From the NCBI GenBank assembly GCA_951406725.2, contig OX597822.1:94922001-94986000 (forward strand): a DNA stretch of 64,000 nucleotides, in the 5' to 3' direction. A program made the position numbers and the translations under genes. The DNA comes from Octopus vulgaris (taxonomy: Eukaryota). Positions 1,615-24,922 of this stretch are shown here, in pieces. The notes beneath the pieces were generated by a model. It had not been told where the DNA came from and did no database searches. It saw nothing but the letters and a program-made list of their open reading frames with translations. The stretch's first letter is position 1, and the number at the start of each line of letters is the position of its first letter.

Positions 1615-1706
1615 CGCCCGCAGAGGGACTTGAACCCGCACCCCTCAGATAACTTCTAAGGTTGACCTATAAAAGTCTGATTCTCTACCGACTGAGCTAT
1701 GCGGGC
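1615..1706 (-). tRNA. tRNA-Lys(UUU) with 19-nt intron, degenerate copy (likely pseudogene)
   Basis: 92-nt match to the cluster consensus. C25>A breaks the D-stem G10-C25 pair, and the variable loop reads GGGT instead of GGTC. Oligo-T terminator follows. Confidence 0.85.
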
Positions 1707-2185
1707 GGACATTTAGCAATCTCTCATATTATCTATAAAAGCAAAGTTGAAAGAACATTTCTCTTTGCATTGCACTGTCATGACTATTCATTGAGCGTCC
1801 ATTGTTTATAGCAAACTGAGGTACATAGATATAATAATGTTCAAGCGTGTCTTATGTTTCACCGATTAAATATTCCACTTAGGTAGGTTAGCTTTTTCGA
1901 AAGAAAAACTGTTCAGAACCCATCACCTCTCACAGGATTTCATACGATCTTGTCAGAGCTCAAGATAAGTGTGTGTAAAACTGTAAGTGGAGAAAACCGG
2001 AAATGTTCCCGAATTCTTGTAAAACAGTGGAAACACAAACTACGAGATGTTGATATAAATTCGTGCAACGGCTCAAACCTGACAGCCTTGTTTGTACATA
2101 TATGTATGTATATATGCATATATATATATATATATATATATATATATATATATATATATATATATATATATATATATATATATAT

Positions 2186-2378
2186 ACTAAGTAATTAAGG
2201 GTTTAGCAACGAATTGCCTCACCAACACACCGAATTTAGCAATTCGTTGCTAAACCCTTAATTACTTAGTATTACTTAAATTTTCCTCGAATGGGGCTTT
2301 TACATGCCGAAATCTACTTGGTGTAATTGATAATTATTCCAAATTGATTAATTTCACCCTTTATTATTACTGATAACT
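2186..2378 (+). mobile_element. Short fold-back element inserted in (AT)n of unit 1 only
   Basis: Inverted arms (ACTAAGTAATTAAGGGTTTAGCAACGAATTGC and its reverse complement) plus ~110-bp tail. Absent from the equivalent (AT)n of units 2 and 3. Homologue at 31771-32079. Confidence 0.75.
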
Positions 2379-4453
2379 ATATATATATATATATATATAT
2401 TATTATATGATCGAACGCCATGCGTCCTTTTCCAAGTAAGTTTTATCTTAAGAATTACAATGCGCACTCTTCTATCTTTACTATCTCTTCCCTGTCTATC
2501 TCTCTCCCTCTCTTGTTCTTCATCCTTTCTGGCTTTCTCTCCCCATTCTTCCCTATTCTTCTCCTCTCTCTCAATCCTCCTCCTCGACTCTCTCGTCGCT
2601 AACACGTGACGAAAGAGAATCTATCTTTCTGACTACTACATTCGTAAAGACAACAACGTGCTTATACAGTCTTCTTCATAAGCTCGCCCTCCTAGCGTTC
2701 AGAAGCATATTTCTATCGTATTGACTTAACAACCCTCAACGTTTGTTTTTACGGTTTTGTTCTCATTGTTCTGTTCTTGTCACCACTTTCACACACTGCA
2801 AAAAAAAAATTGTTTAATTTGCTTTGCGGGAAGGACTGTTTCAATGAAGTCGCGTCTTCTCCTTACTTTCGTAACGCGGAGTAAATGAAACAGGGACAAC
2901 TGAAGAAGGGGAATACTCTTTATGTTGTATGTCTCTTTTCTCTGTTTTTTTTTCGCTGTTCGAAAAAAAGTTCGTTTCTATGTTTTTGTACTTATGTTTT
3001 CGTTTTTCATTGTATTCAACGATTCTTTTATGTCCTGTACCCATATATGCATGTATATATACATATATATGTAGTTATGTACATATATATATATATATAT
3101 ATATATATATATATATATATATATTTATAAACATAGATATATATGTGTGTGTGTATATATACATATATATATATACATATATATATATACGTATACATAT
3201 ATATATATGTATATATATATACATCTATATATACATATATATACATATATATATATATATATATATATATATATATATATATATATATATATATATATAT
3301 ATATCAGATTCATCTTTTAGACTGATGTGGACCCTAGACTCATATTTATAGGTGACTGATGACTTGTGCTATGAATTTGTCTAAGATGAAGATTTGCATC
3401 TTGTCAACTCCTCCCTCTCTCTCATATCCGTGACTATCTTCAATCCAGAAGCAAGACCAGACGTCTGGGAATGGTGACAGATGTACTCAATGGCTGAGAT
3501 AATCTTACCTCATCTTGCTCTCTGCACTCCAGAATGTCACTTCCCCTTCCGTTGTAACATGAAGGTTTCTTCCACAGACACCGCCAAGTCCCATATTCAG
3601 ATGTTGCCGGATTAGGAGGATTGTGGAACTAACTCTTAGACACGGTTGATCCGAGTTCAATTGTAATGCGTCATAGCAGCACCTGACAACGTTTCAGCTT
3701 TGGGTTAATTACCCTATTATTAGAATTTACTTGCCTGTGCATCTCAATATTGGATTTGCCGGTGTCTGTGGAAGAAACCATCATGATTCAACGGAAGAGG
3801 AAGTGACATTCTGGAGTGCAGAGAGCAGCAAGATGAGGTAAGATTATCTCAGACATCGTCTACATCATTTTAAACAATTTCACCGTCAACCTGCCATAAC
3901 TGATATTGTGTGAATACTCTAAAGGTGTATGACTTTGAATATGCTTCTTTTCGGATTTATGATTTACTGAGGATATATCTGTGTGTATGAATGTATGTGT
4001 GTGTATATACATATGTATATTGTATTGGCATCCTTTCTGTCTCGGGAGACAATGGAGTTGCGCATGTTTTTTGTTTTTTTTTGTTTTCTTTTTGTAGTCT
4101 AGTCCGGCTTTTACATTTCATGTCCTGATACATTTCCTGCTGTGGCTGTGTAGTCCTATCCTGGACAAACACACATATATATATATATATATATATATAT
4201 ATATATATATAGAGAGAGAGAGAGAGAGAGAGAGAGAGAGAGAGAGCGGTTAGAGAATGGAATGTTAGTAGACACGGTTGTACATAGCCCCTCATTACAA
4301 AAACATAGACAAAATACAAGCAATAAAAAAAAAACTAATAAACGGACATGAATAAATTCATTGTAAAACTTCAGACGAAATCATAGCCTCACGGAAGAGA
4401 TAAACAACACAATAAGGTAAAAAAAAAGAATTCAATAAAGCGAAAACGATTTA

Positions 4454-4545
4454 CGCCCGCAGAGGGACTTGAACCCGCGACCCTCTGATTACTTCTAAGG
4501 TTGACCTATAAAAGTCTGATGCTCTACCGACTGAGCTATGCGGGC
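4454..4545 (-). tRNA. tRNA-Lys(UUU) with 19-nt intron; U41>A anticodon-stem mismatch
   Basis: Full cloverleaf. The 3' strand of the anticodon stem reads TCAGA rather than TCTGA. Confidence 0.88.
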
Positions 4546-4567
4546 GGACACTTAGTAATCTCTCATA

Positions 4568-5073
4568 TCTATATATATAAAACTCTAGTTGTGTGAGTGT
4601 CTGTCCCCTTCGATTTAGATTCCTAACTCCTCCCACATTTTGCGGTGCAGTTTAACCAAATTCGGGTATCTTATAGTCGTGATTCATATCGAGCCCGTCT
4701 GACTATTAGCGCGCGTCAACGATGAGTCTACGATTTTAAAAATAATTTAACATCATTTTTTATTCCATTTTAATGCATAAAATGCATCGTATGTCGATGG
4801 CGGCGGAGTTGGCGTCCACGCTCACAGCTGCACCTGTTTGCTTCTCCCCCTTCCCTCCCTCGTGAAGCTGTGGGGAAGGGAGTGTAAAGAAATCAACGTC
4901 GTAATGCGTTGTGAAGGAAACCAGCGTTCTTTTAGAACAACGACTTCATGGCTTGAAGACACCAAAACAAAAATGGCTAAGAAACCCCGAATTTATAAGG
5001 GAAGTAACTCTCTAAAAATGCTTATATAGTTATTTCCCTTACAAACCCGAGCAACGCCGGGCGATACTGCTAG
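4568..5073 (+). mobile_element. Non-autonomous Helitron
   Basis: 5'-TC and 3'-CTAG termini with subterminal hairpin CCCGAGCAACGCCGGG. Inserted between A and T with no TSD; the empty site CTCTCATA|TTATCTAT is present in units 1, 3 and 4. Confidence 0.9.
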
Positions 5074-23381: not shown

Positions 23382-23473
23382 CGCCCACAGAGGGACTTGA
23401 ACCCGCGACCCTCAGATTACTTCTAAGGTTGGCCTATAAAAGTCTGATGCTCTACCGACTGAGCTATGCGGGC
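23382..23473 (-). tRNA. tRNA-Lys(UUU) with 19-nt intron (G5:U68 wobble)
   Basis: Full cloverleaf with a T8 terminator. Confidence 0.93.
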
Positions 23474-24429
23474 GGGCTGAAAGAAAGCTGAAATACTACA
23501 TATAAAACAACAAAACTTCAAAAACAGGTGCATTTTTTTTTTTCATGATGAGAAATTTGAAGTGATAGTAATGTCTTCCTTCGTAGCGTTGTTGAATAAC
23601 CATCCGATCGCTTTATTTCTATTTATTGTATTAACTGGTTTTTTTTCTTTTTTTTTTTTTCTATCACCGGAAAATATCCTTGACTTACCTTGTTTTCAAT
23701 AATTGAAATGCAGATTCGATCTTGATTAAAAAAAAAAGTTGCTGATAACTGACAACAGTAGTTTTTAACACTTTCTTTCCTTTTTCTTTTTTTGTAACGC
23801 CCCCTCGACTAGACTTAACATGGATGATCTTTTATCAAATTTACTCTAAAAGTGGATTGTATAAGGTTTTGACAATGAAATGGTTACAAATTAATAAAGA
23901 CAGAAGTTGTAAATTGACTTTATACTTAACAAGTTAATGGCTTCCCAGTGCCTGATGAGATCTCATTTGTATTTTAATACCCATTACTAGTTTTAACATG
24001 TATAATATAATTACTACTTTAGGTAAAAATTAGTTCGTTAACTATGTTACCTCACAGCCCCCTAAAGCCTAACGCTCCTTTCGACACGCCCAGCGCCTCC
24101 TTGGGGGCGGTACCGCCCATGTTAAGGACCTCTGATTTATCATAATTTCCACTTACATTTTGTAATTATAAATCGAAATACTACCGAAGAAAACCTGAGG
24201 ATCGTGGCTGGAACGCCTTTTATTATAGATTATATCACCAGATCTAACTGCAATGAGGATTCTTATCTCGTTCAGTCACAAAGCAATTCGTTTCTTCTTT
24301 TTTTTCCTTTTTAATATTGAGAATACTTGTAGGATCTCACGTATGTAGTGATAGAAGGTTGAAAAACTTCGACTGATTGAGTTGAAAAATACATTACTGT
24401 AACACTATTTCAGCATTTAGCTTCAGCCC

Positions 24430-24521
24430 GCCCGCATAGCTCAGTCGGTAGAGCATCAGACTTTTATAGGTCAGCCTTAGAAGTAATCTGAGGGTCGCGG
24501 GTTCAAGTCCCTCTGCGGGCG
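24430..24521 (+). tRNA. tRNA-Lys(UUU) with 19-nt intron, the only plus-strand copy
   Basis: GCCCGCATAGCTCAGTCGGTAGAGCATCAGACTTTTA-TAGGTCAGCCTTAGAAGTA-ATCTGAGGGTCGCGGGTTCAAGTCCCTCTGCGGGCG. Confidence 0.95.
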
Positions 24522-24527
24522 TATGGA

Positions 24528-24537
24528 TTTTTTTTTT
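24528..24537 (+). terminator. Pol III oligo-T terminator
   Basis: T10 run starting 7 nt after the tRNA discriminator base. Confidence 0.8.
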
Positions 24538-24830
24538 CAATACCAACTGACCGAGATACAAAAGTCTGGTTTTATATATATATGAAAGAAAAATGTGTTC
24601 AGAATGCTCGATGGTTGTAAAAAATATATATTTATTTACATATCACATATTTCTTCAACTACTCCTGTAGTTTCTTTCATATATATTAAATCTGTACATC
24701 ACCCCCAATACTTCTATCTCAGAACTATGATCAGTTGGTAAAAATAAAGTGTTTTGTTTTATATATATATATATATAAGACGTTTTTATCTGAGAACTAT
24801 GGTCGGCTGGTATTTAAAAAAATTACTTTA

Positions 24831-24922
24831 CGCCCGCAGAGGGACTTGAACCCGCGACCCTCAGATTACTTCTAAAGTTGACCTATAAAAGTCTGATGCT
24901 CTACCGACTGAGCTATGCGGGC
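24831..24922 (-). tRNA. tRNA-Lys(UUU) with 19-nt intron, intact
   Basis: Full cloverleaf with a T7 terminator. Confidence 0.95.

Follow-up and report, generated by a model that had tools for sequence, protein, structure and literature searches.

The window, a 64,000-nucleotide stretch of the Octopus vulgaris genome (contig OX597822.1, positions 94,922,001 to 94,986,000), harbors exactly ten tRNA genes between 1615 and 24922, called alike by ARAGORN and Rfam. All ten have the anticodon UUU and carry an insert after position 37, at the 37/38 site, which is 19 nt long in nine genes and 17 nt long in 22297..22386, as the original prediction had described from the letters of this stretch. Nine genes lie on the minus strand and one on the plus strand. 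A pyrimidine mismatch at 50:64 of the T stem is present in every copy and is family-wide; it is the only flaw of the mature-domain cloverleaf in seven copies, while the stem check revealed one further broken pair in the other three: D-stem G10:A25 in 1615..1706 (intron 1651-1669), anticodon-stem A29:A41 in 4454..4545 (intron 4490-4508), and T-stem U51:C63 in 7690..7781 (intron 7726-7744). The first of these is possibly a weak or dead copy. The following minus-strand genes are intact: 9319..9410 (intron 9355-9373), 13970..14061 (19-nt intron), and 16028..16119 (intron 16064-16082). They are followed by 22297..22386, with its divergent intron at 22333-22349, 23382..23473 (intron 23418-23436), the inverted plus-strand gene 24430..24521 (intron 24467-24485), and the last gene of the array, 24831..24922 (intron 24867-24885). 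An eleventh, 5'-truncated copy on the minus strand (22068..22110) retains the last 7 nt of the intron and exon 2, with other sequence in place of exon 1. Positions 1..10140 consist of tandem segmental duplicates of ~2.7-3.3 kb (families D4 and D8-D17) with one gene each, and this duplicate is the unit of local amplification. The window also contains zinc-finger open reading frames, which have distant matches only, mostly in vertebrates.

The window genes close a 32-gene, 106-kb tRNA-Lys(UUU) array that runs 81 kb further upstream of the window, and a second array of 28 genes is located on a different chromosome. Every gene of the arrays contains an intron. Lys genes were found neither at 25-64 kb of the window nor over 158 kb upstream of where the array starts. 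A genome-wide search with an exon-intron-exon pattern that accepted introns of 5-35 nt returned 89 matches, against none with the reversed control, which excludes a chance origin of the pattern. A search with exon 2 gave 117 matches, 100 of which were listed; no Lys gene with a long intron was present among the matches listed and examined. Across the genome, an Rfam search for tRNAs scored 63 candidates only and is not a census. Altogether, 101 intron-bearing copies were recorded, in agreement with the amplified Lys(UUU) family that had been proposed. A T4 terminator lies within 25 nt downstream of 62 of the 64 array genes. The C6 array also includes seven plus-strand exon-2 fragments with no exon 1 within 400 nt, taken as debris. 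The arrays would have expanded through local tandem duplication.

The introns of the 101 copies range from 11 to 31 nt and can be sorted into 12 families; these lengths fall inside the 6-133 nt range given for tRNA introns in PMC4090602. A G at intron position -3, opposite C32, is found in 100 of 101 copies and in 57 of 58 distinct introns, including all 12 families of intact genes, against an overall intron G content of 25%; no search pattern used on the genome required this base. The corresponding chance figure of 6e-8 is merely indicative, because the 12 families share ancestry. In all ten window copies, the 17-nt variant included, intron positions -3 to -8 are able to pair with positions 32-37, with G(-3) facing C32. 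The anticodon-intron pairing of the original prediction stands over this span, but its pair between A31 and the second-last intron base would come at the expense of the stem pair A31-U39; the standard geometry of the splice site leaves that intron base bulged. The wobble base of the anticodon has a pairing partner in every one of the 39 distinct introns carried by intact genes. Mean pairwise differences for exon, intron, and upstream sequence are 0.040, 0.470, and 0.558 in the C9 array and 0.064, 0.205, and 0.521 in the C6 array; between the arrays, exons differ by 0.027 (3%) and introns by 0.710 (71%). In each of the ten window copies, the minimum-energy fold is more stable than the canonical precursor fold by 2-9 kcal/mol, so that the predicted precursor geometry rests on conservation rather than on energy, and folding energy was dropped as support for it.

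An abundant set of intronless Lys(UUU) genes, which had been named, together with a lack of spliced product, as the circumstance that would speak against the original prediction, did not emerge. The 27 intronless copies that were examined lie scattered through the genome, are more decayed than the array genes (a mean of 7.3 differences, compared with 2.0 and 3.4 for the arrays), and bear marks of an origin from spliced RNA. None of 24 has a neighboring second copy within ~1.5 kb, and the intron is gone to the base. The 10-nt trailer is identical to that of an intron-bearing gene in 7 of the 24 copies, and at least 9 of 10 nt agree in 13; shuffled trailers gave means of 0.14 and 0.80, respectively, and none of 2000 shuffles reached either count. 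The remaining 11 have no source trailer at this level among 68 candidates, with 100 of the 117 exon-2 matches covered. Individual sources could be recognized: L050, L051, and L274 agree with the intron-bearing gene C4:43037595 in each of its three exon variants, over 5-7 nt of its leader, and in its trailer; L052 and L055 carry both variants of C14:34177537; the leader, U68 variant, and trailer of window gene 23382..23473 reappear in L033 (C2), and the trailer of 24430..24521 in L034 (C2). Likewise, the trailer of 13970..14061 was found again (10/10 nt) after two dispersed intron-bearing retrocopies on C19. One intronless copy, L120, has a CCA end, which is not gene-encoded here, and a 15-nt target-site duplication on its two sides, the only one among 21 copies tested in a search confined to duplications of 9-20 nt close to the ends of the gene. 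With three seeds, supplied by three of the tail-bearing intronless copies, repeat-like tails directly behind the gene were detected for none of the 64 array genes, for 17 of the 37 dispersed intron-bearing copies, and for 11 of the 24 intronless copies. About 40 dispersed copies adjoin repeat elements or are 5'-truncated. By these features, the intronless copies appear to be retrocopies made from precursor RNA after splicing. Since such scattered, likely RNA-made copies carry the exact spliced joint, the intron is likely removed in life.

Position 58 provides a further mark. A T at this position is present in 12 of 25 intronless copies, 4 of 37 dispersed intron-bearing copies, and none of the 64 source genes (Fisher P = 2e-8 for intronless copies versus source genes and 0.002 versus intron-bearing retrocopies, in a test picked after inspection of the data), while other A sites show 2 changes in 225 site-copies. 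T58 turns up in copies from different source genes and with different tails, as expected if reverse transcriptase had misread m1A58. A literature search outside subscription papers retrieved no report of m1A58 marks in retrocopies.

These observations bear on three alternative explanations. The likeliest of them, although improbable, is that the intronless copies descend at the DNA level from an older intronless gene and are uninformative on splicing and m1A58, leaving the introns real and unproven. Trailers that are shared among intronless copies but were not traced to any intron-bearing gene (L032, L046, L053, L125, and L134, with a second group of L037, L042, and L136) are consistent with such descent, as is the scarcity of target-site duplications. 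Nevertheless, the leader, the exon variants, and the trailer tie other copies to at least five different intron-bearing genes, T58 is found with different sources and tails and in no source gene, and L120 has a CCA end, which is not gene-encoded here. Quite unlikely is the possibility that the genes in use are the intronless ones and that the intron-bearing arrays are relics, amplified but silent. L048 is intronless, has no differences from the normal mature sequence, no repeat tail, and a T run behind it, every difference in L032 and L037 is a variant that array genes also show, again with a T run behind, and stems are broken in three of the ten window copies; however, intact genes number 57 in the arrays and clean intronless genes about three, the exons and -3 G of the arrays are fixed while introns and flanks diverge, and the intronless copies have more differences and derive their trailers from intron-bearing genes. 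The idea that the units are a tRNA-derived repeat (a SINE head or satellite), whose insert is not an intron, would fit the dispersed copies that are fused to repeats or truncated and the tandem duplication of the window units. It is very improbable and already largely refuted: with the three tail seeds, an element body or tail was found in none of the array genes, where a terminator is present instead, both the length and the sequence of the insert vary freely apart from the positions that pair, and copies without it miss it to the exact base.

The reading favored here, with a probability of roughly 0.9, is that the inserts are canonical 37/38 tRNA introns of a 32-gene array, likely cut by TSEN and sealed by RtcB, and that the intron-bearing genes likely supply most tRNA-Lys(UUU). 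The joint of the intronless copies falls exactly at the site of the insert, and two loci, on C4 and C23, together gave three matches to the tRNA intron endonuclease domain (PF01974, tRNA_int_endo) that exceed the Pfam threshold, which, with the position and the -3 G, upholds the proposed TSEN-type intron. Dependence on splicing would not be complete, since L048, L032, and L037 could be transcribed, and a small amount of tRNA may need no splicing. In the proposed pathway, Pol III would transcribe leader, exon, intron, exon, and trailer; the sites of cleavage would be set by the mature domain together with the C32:G(-3) pair; and TSEN would excise the intron before ligation of the exons by RtcB. 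Splicing would often precede loss of the 3' trailer, because spliced retrocopies retain gene-specific trailers, and A58 would carry m1A in trailer-bearing precursors, because retrocopies show A58-to-T. Reverse transcriptases of retroelements would occasionally copy precursors onto SINE or LINE ends, dispersing spliced and unspliced copies. tRNA retropseudogenes and U6-L1 fusions are known cases of small Pol III RNAs copied to the 3' end of a retroelement and dispersed, often with 5' truncation; here, three stages are caught (unspliced with trailer, spliced with trailer, and mature with CCA) together with misreading of position 58. No report of tRNA precursor chimeras was found in the literature search. 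The retention of trailers after splicing is unlike yeast, where end-processing comes before splicing, and like human cells, as reported in bioRxiv 2022.04.28.489951.

Budding yeast tRNA-Lys(UUU) has an intron, and its anticodon family and position equal those found here. In animals, PMC10485636, PMC10275265, and PMC12530127 name introns in Tyr(GUA), Ile(UAU), Leu(CAA), and Arg(UCU), whose removal depends on TSEN and RtcB; a 2025 paper using GtRNAdb describes the other metazoan tRNAs as essentially free of introns (PMC12530127), and neither Lys gene of Trichoplax has an intron mark in Table 1 of PMC2655684. The canonical metazoan introns have in common with those of Lys(UUU) the 37/38 position, short length, a conserved proximal anticodon-intron pair, otherwise free sequence, and variation among family members; the anticodon family differs, and here ~100 Lys(UUU) copies contain an intron. 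Lys(UUU) is missing from the published list and would be a fifth family. The literature search, which covered material other than subscription papers, GtRNAdb pages, and RefSeq annotations, found no report of Lys(UUU) introns in animals, and existing genome annotations may hold them already.

A metagenome scan revealed 114 further Lys(UUU) genes that contain an intron and whose exons are closely similar; a few adjoin animal-type genes, and 12 loci are virus-like. Host placement was based on 72 + 148 flanking open reading frames compared with Pfam (the 148 from 211 shorter ones) and 20 loci compared with Rfam, and gave taxon hints for 4 of 99 non-viral loci only; one of these four, L152, with an MraW/PRA-CH neighbor, has a non-animal look, and the Atlas result for the L155 protein refers to a 47%-identical homologue. 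Sequencing runs of five organism labels, with no RNA run among those listed, contain 5-6 of 6 sampled words, a hint from sequence matches that relatives share the intron. Since many other eukaryote contigs carry one, the Lys(UUU) intron is probably not special to Octopus vulgaris, and appears to be an ordinary TSEN-type intron in an unexpected animal tRNA family, probably widespread. The chances are about even for a broader proposal: that animals have in Lys(UUU) a fifth intron family, one both old and widespread, present in molluscs, other marine invertebrates, and giant viruses and absent from vertebrates, insects, and nematodes, on which the databases are centered, and that retrocopies in large genomes form a fossil record of tRNA maturation, here of splicing before trailer removal and of m1A58 rising around splicing.

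Which tRNAs have introns, and why, is an open question, and a fifth family, reading codon AAA, offers a new test case. A 2025 survey ties conserved tRNA introns to intron-dependent modifications, with four animal families (PMC12168002, PMC12530127); the pairing of the wobble base with the intron raises the question of whether modification of tRNA-Lys(UUU) is also intron-dependent. The A58-to-T change indicates that genome sequence alone may reveal RNA modification and processing order in species without tRNA-seq. If the favored reading is true, lysine decoding in these animals would rely on TSEN and RtcB.

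ARAGORN and Rfam, run over the whole window at default thresholds, agree on ten tRNA genes at 1615-24922 and return no further tRNA gene in the rest of it. All ten carry a UUU anticodon and are interrupted directly behind position 37 by an insert of 19 nt in nine genes and 17 nt in one, as the original prediction of ten intron-containing tRNA-Lys(UUU) genes had stated. Its claim that the 3' part of the intron pairs with the anticodon arm is also borne out: positions 32-37 are pairable with intron bases -3 to -8 (counted back from the intron 3' end) in 10/10 genes. In a partial eleventh copy at 22068-22110, exon 2 is preceded by no more than the final 7 nt of the intron, and element-like sequence at ~21900-22130 stands in place of its exon 1. 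Three window copies, all within recently duplicated units of 2.7-3.3 kb, have one broken stem pair each, and a 50:64 pyrimidine mismatch in the T stem is common to all ten. The mismatch is C:U, variant genes having U:C or C:C instead, and some metagenome types share it. By eye, the ORF at 17368-18258 (minus strand) resembles a piece of a Helitron helicase, and those at 25977-26857 (minus), 37447-37992 (plus) and 13081-13443 (minus) resemble LINE reverse transcriptase or GIY-YIG (Penelope-type) ORF fragments. Two single-exon ORFs at 35941-37035 and 48402-49772 (both plus) encode C2H2 zinc-finger arrays, for which only distant homologues were returned.

The window corresponds to positions 94922001-94986000 of contig C9 in a 2.8-Gb genome, which encodes molluscan haemocyanin (38 domain matches), with seven units per gene on C5 by our reading of the coordinates, a number that we take to be consistent with an octopod. 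A genome pattern of exon ends separated by a gap of 5-35 nt gave 89 matches and its control none, and a script census of every pattern match plus 484 kb of tiles counted 101 intron-bearing copies. Of these, 32 form a 106-kb array on C9 that ends in the window; a second array on C6 has 28 copies, a small group of four lies farther along C9, and 37 copies are dispersed. One array gene (L058, C9:94907911) has a 31-nt intron that arose by duplication of its last 12 nt and retains the 3' splice-site motif. On the plus strand of the C6 array, seven inverted fragments (L082-L085) consist of an intron-like end and exon 2 without exon 1, each head-to-head with a complete gene.

Intron length across the 101 copies ranges from 11 to 31 nt, with 58 distinct sequences, and the introns of the 66 intact genes form 12 families. 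Position -3, which faces C32, is G in 100/101 copies, although introns have an overall G content of 25% and no search pattern applied to this genome required G there. Among the 39 distinct introns of intact genes, wobble U34 is pairable with -5 in all 39, and the remaining helix positions pair in just 13-22. This pattern agrees with the published rule, as worded in the cited part of PMC10485636, that the proximal anticodon-intron pair is the sole conserved and required one. Divergence per site between the C9 and C6 arrays is 0.027 in exons and 0.71 in introns; inside the C9 array it is 0.040 in exons, 0.470 in introns and 0.558 in the upstream flank. A T4 run lies downstream of 62/64 array genes, and a splicing endonuclease domain is encoded at two loci of the genome. 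Counting against the intron reading, in the ten genes of the window the canonical precursor fold is less stable than the minimum-energy fold by 2-9 kcal/mol. Judged from these sequence patterns, the inserts are predicted to act as introns under selection, and we put the probability that those of the window are mechanistically ordinary TSEN-type introns at about 0.9.

An abundant intronless Lys(UUU) set had been named beforehand as the observation that would speak against the prediction. One intronless-gene pattern matched 25 times against 4 for its control, and a second 21 times against 0; together they cover 30 loci, of which six were left out as non-tRNA or heavily truncated; an exon-2 search added three copies among the matches listed (100 of 117). 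In sequence type the intronless copies all agree with the array genes, and the 24 whose 3' register is intact each stand alone, with no further copy next to them. These dispersed copies are decayed, with a mean of 7.3 differences from the reference versus 2.0 and 3.4 in the arrays, and many keep the trailers of source genes: the 10-nt trailer is exactly that of one intron-bearing gene in 7/24 and matches it at 9 or 10 of 10 letters in 13/24, where shuffling the first six trailer letters gave means of 0.14 and 0.80 and 0/2000 shuffles reached the observed values. L050, L051 and L274 match C4:43037595 in three exon variants, leader and trailer; L052 and L055 match the intron-bearing gene C14:34177537; L033 and L034 match the window genes at 23382 and 24430, respectively; the source gene was not identified for 11/24. 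One of three repeat tails, the seeds for which were taken from three of the tailed intronless copies, stands behind the T run in 11/24 intronless copies, 17/37 dispersed intron-bearing copies and 0/64 array genes. L120 has a CCA end and is enclosed by a 15-nt target-site duplication, which was found in no other intronless copy (21 tested). L048, L032 and L037 agree with a normal mature tRNA and could still serve as genes.

T occupies position 58 in 12/25 intronless copies, 4/37 dispersed intron-bearing copies and 0/64 source genes, counts that leave out 2, 4 and 4 copies whose T arm is out of register; at the other A sites, 2 of 225 positions in the intronless copies are changed. The excess in spliced over unspliced dispersed copies has a P of 0.002 and position 58 lay outside all genome search patterns, but the pattern was spotted first and tested afterwards. 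Dispersed copies of this type include L033, L034, L050, L051, L055, L120, L273 and L274. Since m1A58 makes reverse transcriptase misincorporate (PMC8062790, in the part cited), the simplest reading is that T58 copies were made from modified RNA, and A58-to-T is likely a fossil of m1A58 misread by the reverse transcriptase of a retroelement. That T58 is commoner in spliced copies could stem from how old the precursors were, and need not mean that the modification depends on splicing. Retention of trailers by spliced copies would place splicing ahead of 3' end removal, the same order as that described for human cells in the cited part of bioRxiv 2022.04.28.489951. On the proposed course of events, splicing would precede 3' trailer removal and the RNA would be modified at A58 before reverse transcription.

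For Lys(CUU), two patterns returned only L140, L141, L142 and L280 (on C4, C20, C21 and C2), all intronless and decayed or repeat-joined, and neither an array nor working genes were located with them; such genes may be absent from the assembly, have another sequence or be truly few. Two high-scoring Arg(UCU) genes (L283, C4:138291272; L284, C4:138303261) have no intron, unlike many animal Arg(UCU) genes.

A metagenome query that required G at -3 ahead of exon 2 returned at least 124 stretches and, because it demanded that G, is uninformative on the anticodon-intron pair and on the intronless share. Of the 126 matches at 123 loci, at least 114, spread over 111 loci, are Lys(UUU) genes with an intron (two others lie at contig edges and ten were excluded); these genes have at least 30 mature sequences, 4-12 differences from that of O. 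vulgaris, and at least 90 distinct introns. Twelve loci (L145, L158, L164, L186, L189, L200, L213, L218, L221, L226, L238 and L265) stand apart as a type of their own, set in gene-dense DNA and adjoining SWIB and DUF5871 genes, with introns of 10-78 nt; we presume that these contigs probably belong to giant viruses. Placement from neighbours is limited to a few of the other 99: two carry a linked CDK-inhibitor gene (L155:1537-2088 and L187:1578-1961) with a homologue that falls closest to animal clusters, one adjoins thrombospondin exons, one adjoins a U3 snoRNA (152 bits on RF00012), and L152 has a neighbour gene without an animal look. Intron-bearing Lys(UUU) genes of this tRNA type therefore occur widely in eukaryotes, and most of the metagenome hosts are likely animals.

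In the cited parts of the literature, UUU ranks 35th and 28th among 45 anticodons across eukaryotes (PMC12168002), Table 1 of PMC2655684 gives the Trichoplax Lys genes without an intron mark, and an animal Lys intron goes unmentioned in the portions consulted of PMC4090602, PMC10275265, PMC4536317, PMC2888827, PMC7962491, PMC2770079, PMC12257675 and PMC10886601. The last of these uses an Aplysia tRNA-Lys(TTT), so annotation of mollusc Lys(TTT) exists, and automated genome annotations very probably include these genes and their introns already. Our literature searches found no publication on Lys(UUU) introns in animals. The novelty lies in the tRNA family that bears the intron, in the intron's apparent spread to other hosts, and in the record that retrocopies keep of splicing and modification.
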